64,000 nucleotides of DNA from Escherichia coli (lineage in GTDB: Bacteria > Pseudomonadota > Gammaproteobacteria > Enterobacterales > Enterobacteriaceae). The position numbers and the translations under genes are program-made. Shown piece by piece: positions 16,155 to 29,118 of this stretch. Numbering within the stretch: the first letter of the stretch is position 1; every line of letters starts with the position of its first letter. Location: assembly GCF_003334815.1 (NCBI RefSeq), contig NZ_QOWO01000006.1. One strand, written 5' to 3'. Under the pieces are notes generated by a model. It was not told the DNA's origin. It did no database searches and saw only the letters and a list, made by a program, of their open reading frames with translations.

Positions 16155-18167
16155 TTACAACACCTCGCGAACCGAGATCCCCAGCCGCTGCATTCGTGAC
16201 AGCAGCGTGGTGCGCTTCATCCCTAATCGCGTCGCTGCGCCACGGGGCCCGGCAACAATGCCATTGGTTTCTCGCAATACCTGAACAATGCGCTGACGTT
16301 CTTCTTCGTCATTCTCTGGCGTCGTCGGGTGCAGTAACTGCGCCATTGAACTGCGAAGCGCTGAATCTTCATTTAGCGTCGGCAGTAAACGGCTTTGTCG
16401 GACATTTAGATGTAAATTCAGACTGTTACCACGAGTCAACAGTACCGCCCGCTCAATCACGTTTTCCAGCTCGCGCACGTTGCCCGGCCAATCCCACGAC
16501 ATCAACTGGCGTAGTGCCTCGGTCGGGATGGCGTCAATTGCGCGATTCATATGGCGCGCCATTTTTTGCGTGAAATGTTTTGCTAAAAGAGGGATATCTT
16601 CCGGACGGTCGCGTAGCGGCGGCAATTCCAGTGGGAAGACATTCAGGCGATAAAAGAGATCGCTGCGAAACTGGCGATCTTCAACCATTTGCCACAAATC
16701 ACGGTTGGTGGCGGCAATGACTCTGACATTCACCGGGATCGTTCTACTCCCGCCGAGACGCTCAATCTCCCGCTCCTGCAATACGCGCAGCAGTTTAGGC
16801 TGAAGTTCTAACGGCAGATCGCCAATTTCATCGAGAAACAACGTGCCGCCATCGGCAATTTCAAAACGACCACGATGGGTATTAATCGCACCAGTAAACG
16901 CCCCTTTGTCATGACCGAATAACTCACTTTCCAGAAGACTGGCGGGGATGGCAGCGCAGTTGATTTTGACCAGCGGCTTGTCGCGTCGCGGGCTAAGTTG
17001 ATGGATCGCTCTGGCGATCACCTCTTTGCCAGTTCCGGTTTCACCACAAATCAACACCGTACTGTCGCTCTTCGCCACAATATCTACCTGCTGGAGCAGG
17101 TCTTCCATTGCCTGGCTTTGATAGATAATGTCACCGATGCCCAGATTCGAAAGGAGCTGCTCGCTAAGCTGGTGGTTTTCTTGCTGCAAACTTTCCTGCA
17201 AATCGGTCATGCTACGCCAGGCATCGGCATTGCCAACGGCAATAGCGATGCGATCGGCTATGTGTTGTAGTAGCTGGCAGTTTTCCTCACTAAAGAGAGT
17301 GGAAGAGGTATGCGCCAGCAACAATGCACCCGGTGTATGGTTGCCAAAGGTAAGCGGTATAAGGAGCGCAGATTCGCAGCCGTTAGATGCAAGTAAGAGT
17401 AATAACGGGTCGCGTTGCCAGAGAAACAGATCATCTGCACGGTGCGTCAAGGTCGGTTGTCGGGTTTGTAGCGTTTGTGTCAGCAATACACTTTCGCCAG
17501 GCATACAGCGTGGCAGACACGCACAATGTGAGGCAGAAAGATCGCTGCACCACAGGCTGAACTTCTCGTTCTTTCGATGATCGCCCAGTACCATACTGAC
17601 TGAAGCCAGACCGAAAAAATGATGGATCTCACGAGCGACGTCAGCGATCAGATCGTCGAGATCAAGATGTGACAGCACTGCATTAGTAATATCAACCAGT
17701 ACCCGATGATGATCGCGATCTTTCTCCAGCAAACGCAGCGCCACCTGCTGTTCTTCATCATTGAGCCATGATTGCAGAACCGGGGTGATTATCCGCGCCA
17801 GCCAGTTAAACAGTGTGCAATCCTGGGAAGTAAAACGACTGCCGTGGGTGCGAATAAAGCGTAGCTCCGCCATTCCACTACTGCCGAGAAGGACGGCGTG
17901 ACGCGAATAATCGACCATCTCGCCCTGATACTCTGTTGTTGCCGTCACATCGCTGCCATCATCATGGTAGCGGTAATAGAAGTTGCTTTTGAGAACATGC
18001 AGTTCAATAAGTTGTACCGGGCTGAACGGCGGCGGCAGCGGGATGAAGGCGCGTAATAAAGACGCCTTGCCGTGTTTCTGTGCTAACCGCTCCGCGAGCA
18101 TTCCGTTTACCGCTTCAATTGTTATTCCTTGTGGCGGGGCAAACATCGCCTCGTCTGACATAGCCAT
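16155..18167 (-). CDS. hyfR: Sigma54-dependent transcriptional activator HyfR (FhlA-like)
   Basis: 670 aa from ATG 18167; AAA+ sigma54-interaction domain (GETGTGKE Walker A, GAFTGA motif), C-terminal HTH. Confidence 0.92.
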
Positions 18168-23816: not shown

Positions 23817-25256
23817 TTACTGCAACCAGGTCGCGGCGATTACGCTGGAAATCAGCGACATCACAATCAGTACAATCAACACCAGGCGCATTGATCCTGG
23901 CAGCGGTGCGGCATCGGCGACGGCCTCGCTCGGTTTGCCAGGCACAACGCGACCAAACCAGCGAATAAACCAGGCGAAACTGGCGACCGATTCAATCATC
24001 AGAAGAATCATGGCGGGCAGCAGGATCCAGTACTCCACTGACAACGCAAAACCGGCAGCAAACAGCGGGAATTTACTGAAGAAGCCGTTGAACGGCGGCA
24101 CGCCGGTAATCGCCAGCGCTGCCACGCAGAAACCCACGCCTGGCAACGGCAGGGTGTGCAATACGCCACGCAGACGCGGCAACAAGCGCGTGCCGCAGCT
24201 GTAACTCAGCGCACCTGCTACAAGGAAAAACAGGCTTTTAGCGAACGCGTGGTTGACGATGTAGGCGATGCTGCCCTCCAGCGCCAGCCGCGAGCCGAAG
24301 ATGGAGAGCGACAAGCCGAAGAACATCCAGCCAAGTTGAGTGATGGTCGACCAGGCTAGCAACCGCTTCATATCCTGCTGTGGCAAATACATCAGAAAGC
24401 CATAAAGAATGGTGACCAGTGCCATGACCATGCCAACGCCGCCAATCACATGCGGGATATTGCCGCCGTCGATAATAGCGCGGGCAAAAATGTAAACGCC
24501 CACTTTCACCATCGATGCGGCGTGGAGATAGGCGCTGATCGGTGTTGGCGCTTCCATTGCGTCCGGTAGCCACGCTTGCATCGGTAGCTGGGCCGATTTC
24601 CCCCACGCGGCAAACAGGATGCCGCCATAAACCAGATAACGTGCGTCGCCGTGTAACTCGCTCATCGCGCTAAGCGCAAACGTTCCGGTCTGCAAAAACA
24701 GCGTGGCGGCGGCAAGATACAACCCCAACGAGCCGATATGAGTGATAAGTAACGCTTTTAGTGCTGAACGCTGCGCTTTATCGCTCTGGTAATAACTGAT
24801 CAACGCCCAGGAGCAGCCGCCTGTAATTTCAAAAAACAACAACTGACCGAGCAGCGTCGAGGAGAGTACCAGTCCCGCCATCGCGCCGATAAACACCAGT
24901 AAAAATGCGTAATAACGATTCGTGCCGTTATGCGGGTGTTCGCGATTTTTATCCGTCAGATAACCCGTGGAGTAGATCGTGACCAGCAAACCGAGAAACA
25001 CCACCACAAACAGAATCAGCGTACTCACGCGATCAATGACCAGGCCAAACAACGCCACATCCCCCACGTTGACCAACGTCAACGTGACGGCAACTTTATC
25101 GGCCTGATAAAACGCGGAGATCAGTGACAACATGCACAGCGTGGTCAGCGCGGCGAACAAAACCCCCCATTCGGCGGCCCGACGTTGTGGCGAAAACGAA
25201 ACGACCAGTGCGCCGATAAAAGGCAGCAATAACGTCGTCAGAGCAAGATTTTCCAT
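23817..25256 (-). CDS. hyfD: Hydrogenase-4 membrane subunit HyfD (NuoL/M/N antiporter-like)
   Basis: 479 aa polytopic membrane ORF. Confidence 0.93.
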   Translation of the reverse strand: MENLALTTLLLPFIGALVVSFSPQRRAAEWGVLFAALTTLCMLSLISAFYQADKVAVTLTLVNVGDVALFGLVIDRVSTLILFVVVFLGLLVTIYSTGYLTDKNREHPHNGTNRYYAFLLVFIGAMAGLVLSSTLLGQLLFFEITGGCSWALISYYQSDKAQRSALKALLITHIGSLGLYLAAATLFLQTGTFALSAMSELHGDARYLVYGGILFAAWGKSAQLPMQAWLPDAMEAPTPISAYLHAASMVKVGVYIFARAIIDGGNIPHVIGGVGMVMALVTILYGFLMYLPQQDMKRLLAWSTITQLGWMFFGLSLSIFGSRLALEGSIAYIVNHAFAKSLFFLVAGALSYSCGTRLLPRLRGVLHTLPLPGVGFCVAALAITGVPPFNGFFSKFPLFAAGFALSVEYWILLPAMILLMIESVASFAWFIRWFGRVVPGKPSEAVADAAPLPGSMRLVLIVLIVMSLISSVIAATWLQ

Positions 25257-26230: not shown

Positions 26231-28249
26231 TTAGACGGCAATAGCGATTAGCAGCACAACCAGTGCGGCGACCACATACAGGCAATAGAGACGAAAGTCG
26301 CCGCTTTGCAGATGCTGTATTTCTTTGGCCAGCCGTTGGGTGGCGCTCACGATGGGGCGGATCACCCGCTCATCCCAGAAGGGTTCTGTGCTCTGAGCCC
26401 TGGCGGTGACGTGCGCAAGACCTTTATTTAGCCTCAGCGTAGGGTCGAGCTGTTGTCGTAGACGAAATAGCGCAGAAAAGACCACACGCAGCGGCTGCAT
26501 CACGCCATTGCCTGACGGGGCCATCGCATTTTCCCAGCCGTAGCCGCATGCCCAGGCATCTCCTGTGCGACGAAACGCTGCGCGGCGCGAACGACACCAC
26601 AGCCAGTAAAGGCCAGGCAGCAAAGGCATCGCCAGTAGTAACAGCAACAGTAATGAGGGGGTGACCTGTGTATGAAACGTGCCGGGTACAAGTGCTATTC
26701 CGCTGGCGACAGTGGCGGGAGGGGTATTGGTAAACGCATGGGCAATATGCATTATCTTCGGTGCCAGCCAACTGGCACTAAGCGCAATTAATACGCAGAG
26801 TGCCGCGAGCAGTAGCATGGCGACGATCATCGTATTTGGCACTTCCTGTGCCTCTTCAGCGTGTGTACTGCGCGGCGCACCACAGAAAGTAATACCGTAC
26901 ATTTTTACGAAGCACATTACTGCCAGCCCACCAGTGACTGCCAGCATTACCATAGCAATAGGACCCGCAAGTTGTAGCGCTACGGCTTCCACACGACTTA
27001 GTGAGAACAGCGACTGCCAGGTGTACCATTCGCTGATAAAACCATTCAGCGGAGGAATGGCTGATATCGCGAGGCAACCAATCAGGCATGCTGCGGCTGT
27101 CCACGGCATCCGTTTCGCTAGTGCCCCCATTTTTTCCATGTCGTGGGTATGCAAACGCGAAATAATCGCTCCCGCGCCGAGAAATAGCAGCCCTTTGAAC
27201 AGCGCATGGTTGAGCAGATGAAACAGTGCGCCGAGCAGTCCAACCACGGTGAGCAGCGGGTCGTGCAGTGACAGACCGACCATCGCCACACCGACTGCCA
27301 GCAAAATAATGCCGACGTTTTCGACGGTACTCCAGGCCAGCAGCCGTTTGATATCCTGTTCCGCCAGCGCATATAGCACGCCCAGGAGCGCGGAGATTGC
27401 GCCGATCGCCATCACCAGAATGCCCCACCACAGAGGCAAACCCGTTTGCGCCAGCAGATCCATCGCTACTTTCAGGATGCCGAAAATACCTATTTTGACC
27501 ATTACGCCAGACATCAACGCCGAAGCGTGCGATGGTGCGGCAGGGTGAGCGCGCGGCAACCAGCTGTGCAACGGCATCATCCCGGCTTTCGCGCCAAAAC
27601 CGAAAAAGGCCAGCAGGAACACCGCCGACGCCAGCCCCGGAGAAAGTGAAAGCGTGCGGAAACTGGCAAAATCGAGGCTGCCGCTTTCGCGCCCCATCAG
27701 CAAGAAGGCGATCATTATCAGCACCGATCCGGCGTGGGCGATAAAAAAGTAGAGCATGCCAGCGTTGATCGACGTTTTATCCTGCCTGGCAATGACCAGA
27801 AACCAGGAAGACAGCGACATCATTTCAAACAGCACGATGAACCAAAAAGCGTTGTCCATCACCAGCAGGGCAACCATCGATGCGATGAAAATATTCATAA
27901 AGAAGCCCATCGCCGCCGCGCCTTTGCCCTCGTATTCGCGCATATAAGTCAATGAATAGAGAGAACAAACCACCACCAGCAAGGAGATAACCAGCACCAT
28001 AAATGCCGAGAGGCTATCCATTCGCAGGGTTAAATCGGCAAATTCAAAAGGGGTGGCAAAACGGGCGACTAAAGTTACACCAGCATGTAATTGCGTAATT
28101 CCGCTGATGATGCCAATCACGCCGCCCACCAGCGATGTGATGCCGGAAAGCTTAATAGCCAGTCTGTCCAGACCGAGTAAAAACAGCGAAGCCAGACTAG
28201 CAAACAGATAGAGAATCAGCGACCAGGTTAATAATTGCAGGGCATCCAT
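26231..28249 (-). CDS. hyfB: Hydrogenase-4 membrane subunit HyfB (NuoL/M/N antiporter-like)
   Basis: 672 aa polytopic membrane ORF. Confidence 0.93.
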   Translation of the reverse strand: MDALQLLTWSLILYLFASLASLFLLGLDRLAIKLSGITSLVGGVIGIISGITQLHAGVTLVARFATPFEFADLTLRMDSLSAFMVLVISLLVVVCSLYSLTYMREYEGKGAAAMGFFMNIFIASMVALLVMDNAFWFIVLFEMMSLSSWFLVIARQDKTSINAGMLYFFIAHAGSVLIMIAFLLMGRESGSLDFASFRTLSLSPGLASAVFLLAFFGFGAKAGMMPLHSWLPRAHPAAPSHASALMSGVMVKIGIFGILKVAMDLLAQTGLPLWWGILVMAIGAISALLGVLYALAEQDIKRLLAWSTVENVGIILLAVGVAMVGLSLHDPLLTVVGLLGALFHLLNHALFKGLLFLGAGAIISRLHTHDMEKMGALAKRMPWTAAACLIGCLAISAIPPLNGFISEWYTWQSLFSLSRVEAVALQLAGPIAMVMLAVTGGLAVMCFVKMYGITFCGAPRSTHAEEAQEVPNTMIVAMLLLAALCVLIALSASWLAPKIMHIAHAFTNTPPATVASGIALVPGTFHTQVTPSLLLLLLLAMPLLPGLYWLWCRSRRAAFRRTGDAWACGYGWENAMAPSGNGVMQPLRVVFSALFRLRQQLDPTLRLNKGLAHVTARAQSTEPFWDERVIRPIVSATQRLAKEIQHLQSGDFRLYCLYVVAALVVLLIAIAV

Positions 28250-28866
28250 TAGCGTTGCTCCTGAGTGAGGGAAAGGGGATCCTCCCCGCCATTGGCAAAC
28301 CAGCTTGCGGCAAGGCGCTGTTTTTCTTTCATCTGACGTTGCAGGCTATCACCGGTGATCAGCCGTAACGCCTGATTCGGGCAAGCGCGAACGCAGGCCG
28401 GACCTTCTGGCAAGAAATCACACAGGTCGCATTTCACCGCGACGGTCTGGACACCAGGTTCCCAGCGCAGCAAAGCATGTTGTGTTGGCGCGTTTTCTTC
28501 GCCGTCTTTGAGTGAGCCTTCAGCCTGAAAAACATATTGCGCATGGGCATTCACCGGACGGCTTCCTGAAGCGCTGATTGCGCCAAATGGGCAGACCACG
28601 GCGCAAAGCTTGCAGCCAATACAGAGGCTTTCGTTGAGTTGGATCGCATCATCCCTCTGAGAGATGGCATTGACCGGGCAGACCTGCAGGCAAGGGGCTT
28701 CCTCACAGTGATGACACACGACAGGGGCAGTGATTGTTGACGTCTTCGCCAGGGCCAGGCGCGGGTGTTGCTGTAAACCTTGCGTTTTATGCACGTCCGA
28801 ACAGGCAGCGAGACAGGTATTACATCCTGTACACCACAGTGGTTCGGCCACCACAAAGCGGTTCAT
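28249..28866 (-). CDS. hyfA: Hydrogenase-4 Fe-S subunit HyfA (4x[4Fe-4S] ferredoxin)
   Basis: Track ORF 28249..28905; start taken at ATG 28866 (MNRFVVAEPLWCTGCNTCLAACS...) giving 205 aa; AAGGAG 8 nt upstream. Confidence 0.9.
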   Translation of the reverse strand: MNRFVVAEPLWCTGCNTCLAACSDVHKTQGLQQHPRLALAKTSTITAPVVCHHCEEAPCLQVCPVNAISQRDDAIQLNESLCIGCKLCAVVCPFGAISASGSRPVNAHAQYVFQAEGSLKDGEENAPTQHALLRWEPGVQTVAVKCDLCDFLPEGPACVRACPNQALRLITGDSLQRQMKEKQRLAASWFANGGEDPLSLTQEQR

Positions 28867-28906
28867 GTCGGCTCCTTGAAAATGATATGAAACATTGCAT
28901 TTCATA

Positions 28907-28923
28907 TTGCATAAAGGATGCCA
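28907..28923 (-). promoter_or_regulatory. Sigma54 (-24/-12) promoter of the hyf operon
   Basis: Minus strand reads TGGCAT-CCTTT-ATGCA (consensus TGGCAC-N5-TTGCA; GG and GC correctly spaced, 2 mismatches), 41-57 nt upstream of the hyfA ATG; HyfR (sigma54 activator) is encoded in the same cluster. Confidence 0.6.
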
Positions 28924-29048
28924 TTCTGATTAACTCAATATATTCAATAAGTTATGTATTAACTGGATTCTGAACGGTACAAAAATGATGGTCATTAACG
29001 TTCAGCAAAAAATGGATTCGACACCCGTGTCGCAGGGGAAAGCGAGAA

Positions 29049-29064
29049 TGTGATCTTGATCACG
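29049..29064. promoter_or_regulatory. CRP-like palindrome TGTGATC-TT-GATCACg upstream of hyf promoter
   Basis: TGTGA-N6-TCAC arrangement, near-perfect dyad, ~185 bp upstream of hyfA ATG in the bcp-hyfA intergenic region. Confidence 0.4.
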
Positions 29065-29118
29065 AGAAGTGAGGTATGCTGGCCGCAAGCGCAGCCAGCA
29101 CGGAATGGAGCAAAGTAA

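Follow-up and report, generated by a model that had tools for sequence, protein, structure and literature searches.

Does an AT-rich inverted repeat across the start of hyfA transcription help to explain the poor expression of the hyf operon in E. coli? The repeat lies in a 64-kb stretch of E. coli DNA (hereafter the window), in the 252-bp spacer between two genes annotated as bcp (thiol peroxidase; the neighboring gene at 29589-29119, minus strand) and hyfA (hydrogenase 4 subunit; 28249..28866, minus strand, 205 aa, with the A of the ATG at 28866). A 501-nt query around the site matches many E. coli strains, K-12 MG1655 among them, at 100% identity.

The promoter with which the repeat is associated is well supported. 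The sigma54 -24/-12 element TGGCATCCTTTATGCA (PhyfA; 28908..28923, minus strand) has its GG at 28922-28921 and its GC at 28910-28909, with the correct GG-N10-GC spacing, and lies ahead of the hyfA ATG at a distance of 57 to 42 nt. The original prediction had placed a sigma54 match with this spacing on the minus strand, 41-57 nt upstream of hyfA; it is present there, and ChIP-seq, gSELEX and conservation agree with it. The score of the motif says less. We scored both strands of the 64-kb window with the RpoN matrix of 186 promoters printed in PMC7658346. The hyfA site scored 12.1 bits and ranked seventh among all positions on both strands, and shuffled windows contained a mean of 3.5 sites scoring at least as high. 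On sequence score alone, the motif is not beyond chance in 64 kb. We take the site to be real on the strength of its position, its conservation and the published binding data, and not of its motif score. Several sequences outscore the real promoter, at 13.0-13.6 bits: three are intragenic in the hyf operon on the minus strand (24420-24435, 17728-17743 and 16330-16345), and one is antisense within hyfA on the plus strand (28757-28772).

Two genome-wide studies detected binding at this promoter. In the ChIP-seq study of Bonocora et al. (2015), hyfA is the sole hyf gene named in the main text, and peak OS23, with the motif ATGGCATCCTTTATGCA, is assigned to hyfA and carries the flag 'C', for experimentally confirmed in EcoCyc as relayed by those authors; its score is 16, compared to 91-201 for hycA, hypA and glmY (PMC4591121). 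In the gSELEX study of Shimada et al. (2021), the bcp-hyfA spacer reached 92% of the top E-sigma54 peak, and 100% with NtrC (PMC8743547). The element is also conserved. A strong sigma54 site is found upstream of hyfA in about 30 of 45 hyfA-like loci from other species. As in E. coli, the ATG follows at 38-42 nt in Citrobacter, in Kosakonia and in five further loci (L062, L063, L064, L068 and L070), and in Citrobacter, L062 and L063 the element is identical at 15-16 of 16 positions at an equal distance from the ATG. The published hyf promoter has the same sequence and position as TGGCATCCTTTATGCA, with no difference in the -24/-12 element. Thus, TGGCATCCTTTATGCA is the published hyfA sigma54 promoter, one of about 20 experimentally confirmed sigma54 promoters in E. 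coli; it is established knowledge, and nothing about it is new. The original work on the hyf promoter, by Skibinski et al. in 2002 (J Bacteriol 184:6642), is widely cited.

The start of transcription is predicted to be at 28896..28897 on the minus strand. According to the rule of Bonocora et al., the start is 19 bp downstream of the motif centre, which for hyfA predicts a start 31 nt upstream of the gene, at 28897 (PMC4591121). This position falls within the spacer of the dyad and within a conserved AAYGTT block. A primer-extension start, reportedly 30 nt upstream of hyfA, would be at 28896. The mechanically defined hyfA open reading frame has an in-frame ATG at 28903-28905, 39 nt 5' of the annotated start, which would add 13 codons and give a protein of 218 aa. 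N-terminally extended versions of HyfA are found in some database entries (for example, proteins P0001, 237 aa, and P0014, 218 aa). These starts are probably mis-called, since the ATG at 28905 precedes the point where sigma54 transcription starts and lacks a Shine-Dalgarno sequence.

Several blocks upstream of the promoter are also conserved. We aligned orthologous bcp-hyfA spacers, that is, spacers from loci with the gene order dapA-gcvR-bcp-hyfA-hyfB. The conserved blocks are a CRP site, a CGACAC palindrome, a 25-nt block, the sigma54 core, AAYGTT at the start and the Shine-Dalgarno sequence. The CRP site, CGTGATCAAGATCACA (29049..29064, centre about -159.5), is a conserved palindrome, and ChIP-seq of CRP in ETEC H10407 gave the same sequence as a target for hyfA (PMC4287617). 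Myers et al. predicted a 'silent' FNR site that is probably this one. The palindrome CGACAC-GG-GTGTCG (29019..29032, centre about -128.5) has CGACAC..TG.CG invariant across genera and was also flagged as terminator-like. The 25-nt block, GAACGTTAATGACCATCATTTTTGT (28979..29003, minus strand, about -106 to -82), is conserved among relatives at 23 of 25 columns, at two of which E. coli differs, and 10 E. coli alleles have a single SNP over alignment columns 86-159, the region of this block. It is thus almost invariant both within E. coli and from E. coli to Kosakonia. We found no factor assigned to it. A 'constitutive sigma70 promoter', ATGACC-17-CAGAAT, was proposed from RpoD gSELEX (PMC3946193); the 25-nt block overlaps this sequence and contains ATGACC, its proposed -35.

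From their conservation, we infer that the palindrome is a candidate HyfR/FhlA enhancer site and that the 25-nt block is a candidate second activator site of the same kind. An FhlA matrix built from 13 sites (PMC7658346), which is weak, does not single out the palindrome or the block TGACCATCAYTTTTGT; the palindrome scores 5.6 bits, and the best match in the spacer is the CRP site. An IHF-like core, ATTCAATAAGTTA (28942..28954, plus strand), differs from WATCAANNNNTTR by one mismatch; it is a consensus match only, and sits in a variable AT-rich stretch between the enhancer and the promoter. At PhyfA, the established sigma54-dependent promoter of the hyfABCDEFGHIJR-focB operon, E-sigma54 occupies TGGCAT (-24) and ATGCA (-12) in a closed complex and depends on an enhancer-binding ATPase, either FhlA or HyfR, which the operon itself encodes. 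The activator presumably acts at the conserved palindromes further upstream, with CRP at its own site, centred about -159.5. Transcription is predicted to begin at about 28897/28896, 30-31 nt ahead of hyfA.

PhyfA is closely comparable to the formate-regulon promoters that are controlled by FhlA (hycA, hypA, hydN-hypF and fdhF). They are alike in sigma factor, activator family, upstream enhancer sites and function in formate hydrogenlyase. It differs from these promoters in that hyf has an activator gene of its own, hyfR, within the operon, a CRP site centred about -159.5 and a weaker sigma54 ChIP signal (16, compared to 91 and 201).

The dyad is as described in the original prediction, which reported an inverted repeat spanning the presumptive start and a repeated ATGCAAT immediately downstream of the sigma54 element on the same strand. 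We found a perfect repeat, ATATGAAA-N7-TTTCATAT (28885..28907, minus strand, about -10 to +13), with 8-nt arms at 28907-28900 and 28892-28885 and the predicted start at 28897 inside the 7-nt spacer. The two copies of ATGCAAT (28894..28912, minus strand) are at 28912-28906 and 28900-28894, with a 12-nt period. The dyad is the sole perfect inverted repeat with 8-bp arms (spacer of 0-12) in the 252-bp bcp-hyfA spacer. It is no more than mildly unusual: the probability of its occurrence by chance is about 0.04-0.05 in shuffles of the spacer or of its AT-rich core and 0.02 in a 40-nt local test, and about 12.5 perfect repeats with 8-bp arms are expected per shuffled 64 kb. For the 7-mer direct repeat, P is about 0.13. 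The dyad segment is 25-33% GC. Its hairpin has a predicted energy of -5.3 to -6.0 kcal/mol as RNA (z -2.75) and of -4.6 as DNA (z -3.3). We rejected an intrinsic terminator as a reading of the dyad; the scan was negative, only one of the pairs in the stem is G-C, and CATTTTC follows as the tail.

How old is the dyad? In a protein search with HyfA (window 28252-28866), identity is at least 97% in E. coli and Shigella and then falls straight to about 71% or less in all other taxa, including contigs labelled E. fergusonii and Salmonella that have the gene order dapA-gcvR-bcp-hyfA-hyfB. The search found no lineage of intermediate identity, a scan of genome contigs gave no Escherichia, and the age of the dyad can therefore be resolved only as E. 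coli versus the rest. Compared by eye with C. amalonaticus, in which the spacing is equal, about 10 of 23 dyad positions are identical (2 of 8 in the left arm and 5 of 8 in the right arm), versus 15 of 16 in the sigma54 core. The relatives agree with one another at 19 of the 23 dyad columns, which indicates that the segment is constrained in these organisms. Where the relatives agree, E. coli departs from them at 9 of 19 columns in the dyad, compared to 0 of 15 in the sigma54 core, 2 of 23 in the 25-nt block and 1 of 12 in the CRP site. The dyad is missing from this place in hyfA sigma54 promoters that are more distant, in which the median best arm is 4 bp.

The relatives nevertheless keep a weaker, partial dyad in the same register (e.g., AACAAGA...TTTTGTT in L063). 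At three pairs of the dyad, E. coli differs on both sides and yet stays complementary, and L068 and L070 have a hairpin at the same place that is spelled quite differently. Position 28907, the first base of the left arm, is T in all of the close relatives (L062, L063 and Citrobacter). Where K-12 has its first copy of ATGCAAT, O157-type alleles have ATGCATT and the relatives TGCATA. Since 28907 is T in both the close relatives and the O157-type alleles, the eighth pair of the dyad and the first copy of ATGCAAT are states that arose within E. coli. A separate case is found in Atlantibacter-type loci (L007-L010), which have an unrelated GC-rich hairpin, CTGCTG-N7-CAGCAG, shortly after the -12 element and across the predicted hyfA sigma54 start (local P about 0.02-0.03).

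Variation within E. coli adds to this picture. The promoter region is present in 4,298 of 5,426 complete E. coli genomes. In the remaining 1,128, the match is confined to the bcp end and covers the 56-61 nt that follow bcp. A single ST131 genome was inspected (L071); in it, yfgO comes directly after bcp, and the whole hyf operon is absent. Alleles were counted over 79 nt, from 28945 to 28867. The allele identical to that of K-12 is found in 2,541 genomes. An O157-type allele, in which 28907 A is changed to T and TTATGAAA stands in place of ATATGAAA, is found in 185, and the same allele with TGACAT in place of TGGCAT in 139. Thus, 28907 is T in at least 324 E. coli genomes, and the outer pair of the dyad is broken in at least 7.5% of the hyf-bearing genomes. 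TGACAT is also found on the K-12 allele, in 83 genomes, and one strain, APEC20/16, has TAGCAT at -24. Altogether, the GG of the -24 element (28921-28922) is mutated in at least 222 of the 4,298 hyf-bearing complete genomes (among the loci, in L046, L052, L053 and L057), and has been lost independently at least three times: as TGACAT on a K-12-like and on an O157-like background, and as TAGCAT.

The segment downstream of the element hardly varies. Among 18 sampled E. coli alleles, there is no SNP from 28906 to the ATG, and a single SNP in the 41-nt segment that begins with the dyad and ends at the ATG. By contrast, E. coli is highly polymorphic in the AT-rich stretch that immediately precedes -24. 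Two rare slippage variants were aligned to window positions 28895-28920. L060 (GF4-3) has a 5-bp duplication of AATGC that lengthens the dyad spacer from 7 to 12, and in L061 (Res13-Lact-EB12-05) a tandem duplication of CATCCTTTATGCAA, 14 bp long, leaves one -24/-12 element intact and places the dyad 14 bp further downstream.

The locus is the known sigma54 promoter PhyfA, and we consider it probable that the dyad is not a protein operator but a lineage-specific spelling of a hairpin-prone segment. The dyad, at about -10 to +13, would comprise the DNA that is melted at initiation and the first transcribed bases. It would be an E. coli-specific, AT-rich version of a segment that is prone to form a hairpin throughout the clade, and its perfection in K-12 is recent. 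One set of observations runs counter to this reading: the near-invariance of the dyad and the changes on both sides of its pairs are unexpected from pure drift, and some constraint acts on the segment from the dyad to the ATG.

Could the dyad be bound by a protein? The original prediction had suggested a repressor or roadblock site, and an E. coli protein might indeed use the dyad as its operator, either to occlude E-sigma54 or to prevent formation of the open complex, and so add to the silence of hyf. The symmetry is perfect exactly over -10 to +13, the dyad is locally unusual (P 0.02 to 0.05) and near-invariant within E. coli, and the segment has diverged specifically on the E. coli branch. 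However, the half-site sequence is common to no relative, and changes on both sides of a pair that keep it complementary favor pairing over base-specific recognition. The broken state of the outer pair, still carried by the O157-type genomes counted above, is the ancestral one. The studies of CRP, FNR and sigma54 and the SELEX studies that we covered place no factor at the dyad. We found no report of protein binding at the dyad in the literature searched, which included genome-wide binding studies and did not reach the original hyf promoter papers, and no discussion in that literature of a dyad at the hyfA start. An operator here thus seems to us very unlikely. The nearest relatives keep the other regulatory blocks but not the arms, the outer pair is derived and the binding studies covered report no factor there, and the repressor or roadblock reading of the dyad is unsupported.

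Resemblances to known sites did not help this reading. The half-site core of NsrR is ATGCA, which ATGCAAT resembles. The ATGCAAT copies are direct repeats with a 12-nt spacing, off register for an 11-1-11 NsrR site, and a literature search for hyfA and NsrR gave nothing relevant. None of the consensus sequences for PurR, OmpR, TorR, PhoP, Fur, ModE, FNR and CRP fits the dyad; the resemblances to NsrR, PurR, OmpR, TorR and PhoP failed on spacing or key bases. We judge such consensus matching in DNA of 25% GC to be uninformative.

Promoter replacement also argues against a role for the dyad in hyf silence. Finney et al. (2020) replaced the native chromosomal hyf promoter with Phyc or T5 and still found no Hyd-4-dependent hydrogen (PMC7654741). 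The suggestion that the dyad helps to explain the poor expression of hyf finds no support here, as exchange of the whole promoter for either of these two does not rescue Hyd-4 activity. We infer that there is no dedicated repressor. Skibinski 2002 and Self 2004 reportedly found that the hyf promoter fires with HyfR provided in trans, which would point to a limiting activator rather than to a dominant repressor. The dyad is lineage-specific and partly recent, and promoter replacement does not revive hydrogenase 4; the dyad should therefore not be cited to explain the silence of hyf.

Alternatively, the sequence might act simply as DNA. An AT-rich dyad, easily distorted just downstream of the GC at -12, could alter the kinetics of sigma54, either through a tight closed or fork-junction complex (strong binding with low unactivated output) or through easier melting once the promoter is activated. 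Such an effect would fit with the top or near-top E-sigma54 gSELEX peak of hyfA, which was obtained despite a middling motif score, with the low GC content of the segment (25-33%) and with a DNA hairpin that is unusually stable for its composition (z -3.3). However, occupancy in ChIP-seq is moderate (16, compared to 91-201 for hycA, hypA and glmY), the corresponding segment in the relatives is less AT-rich and has a significant DNA hairpin only in L068, and the idea is purely inferential. We give both the kinetic effect and easy distortion next to the -12 GC a low probability, about that of an operator.

A further reading concerns RNA. The Shine-Dalgarno sequence of hyfA, AAGGAG (28872..28877, minus strand), is part of a strand, AAGGAGCC (28877-28870), that is complementary to GGCATCCTT (28922-28914). 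The dyad could form the inner of two helices in an RNA fold. The outer helix would join GGCAUCCUU, from the -24 element, to the Shine-Dalgarno strand AAGGAGCC, and the dyad hairpin would stabilize that pairing. Since the sigma54 start is in the loop of the hairpin, such a fold would be possible only in RNA from upstream, made by read-through from bcp or from a weak sigma70 promoter in the spacer. Translation of hyfA would be blocked on these RNAs, perhaps with subsequent termination by Rho, and RNA from the sigma54 promoter would start in the loop and lack both 5' strands. We consider this fold unlikely to operate as described. It is a speculative rival to our main reading of PhyfA.

Calculated folds give this idea some substance. 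The E. coli 62-mer has a predicted energy of -16.2 kcal/mol (z -2.70), with 0 of 200 shuffles as good, and the same architecture, with z from -2.0 to -3.5, is predicted in about 10 of 13 clade sequences (about seven lineages), although it is absent from L064 and Kosakonia. The inner stem is spelled in at least four ways. RNAalifold recovers both helices unaided, with a consensus energy of only -5.6 kcal/mol and a covariation term of -0.48. We compared pairing in 13 distinct but related sequences in the E. coli register with pairing when the partner strand was slid by 1-3 columns, counting G·U pairs. For the inner helix, 76% of cells are paired, versus 44-63% in the slid registers, with double changes at four pairs and a covariation score of 0.34, versus at most 0.20; 0 of 500 shuffles reach the observed values. 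For the outer helix, 90% are paired in register, versus 30-61%, and one pair covaries, from U-A to C-G. However, there are other reasons for the conservation of the two outer strands (binding of sigma54 and of the ribosome), E. coli was the source of the structure, the independent events are few, and most of the double changes are on the single E. coli branch. The dyad may be part of a weakly conserved hairpin. The fold between -24 and the ATG does not simply come with any sigma54 site that lies beside a ribosome-binding site, since 22 more distant hyfA sigma54 promoters have a mean z of -0.49 and none below -2. The fold has no match in Rfam.

The expected consequence for translation is less clear. 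If the fold worked as an on/off switch, the Shine-Dalgarno sequence should be masked in read-through RNA and free in sigma54 RNA. Its predicted probability of being unpaired is about 0 in read-through RNA, and in RNA from +1 it is also largely paired (unpaired probability 0.01-0.39); the contrast is thus not clean. The expectation is weakly borne out in K-12 (0.39 in sigma54 RNA versus 0.00), and several relatives show no contrast.

The need for an insulator would depend on termination after bcp. Just 3' of the bcp stop, a GC-rich hairpin, GTGCTGGC-N10-GCCAGCAT (29076..29101, minus strand), lacks a T-run in E. coli, a point in favor of the proposed fold, and was not scored as a terminator. A GC hairpin with a T-run is found at this place in Citrobacter, Kosakonia and the other relatives (L001-L006, L062 and L063). 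Judging from these sequences, more read-through from bcp may reach the hyf promoter in E. coli than in the relatives with T-run terminators. However, the canonical bcp terminators of the relatives lessen the need for an insulator there, and the literature search found no data on bcp-hyfA read-through or termination.

The predicted arrangement at hyf would resemble known upstream insulators, those with an anti-Shine-Dalgarno strand or with overlap of a terminator and a promoter, in that a 5' strand pairs with the Shine-Dalgarno sequence, or a hairpin forms, only in upstream RNA. In contrast to the anti-Shine-Dalgarno insulators, the pairing strand at hyf would be the -24 element itself, the hairpin is AU-rich and unlike a canonical terminator, and the hyf arrangement is a prediction. 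In its full form, the proposal would be that throughout the bcp-hyfA clade the sigma54 promoter doubles as RNA, with -24 pairing with the hyfA ribosome-binding site and the dyad hairpin supporting it; only sigma54-initiated RNA would be translatable, and the promoter would be insulated against read-through. We regard this as unlikely.

We continue to favor a known sigma54 promoter whose start region is prone to form a hairpin. The useful outcome of the analysis is a negative one: there is no support for the dyad as an explanation for the silence of hyf. The segment from -24 to the ATG has a clade-specific, unusually stable predicted fold that would be cheap to test. The repeated losses of the -24 GG suggest relaxed selection on hyf expression in E. 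coli, and these knock-outs, together with the absence of the promoter region from a fifth of the complete genomes, fit an operon under relaxed selection.
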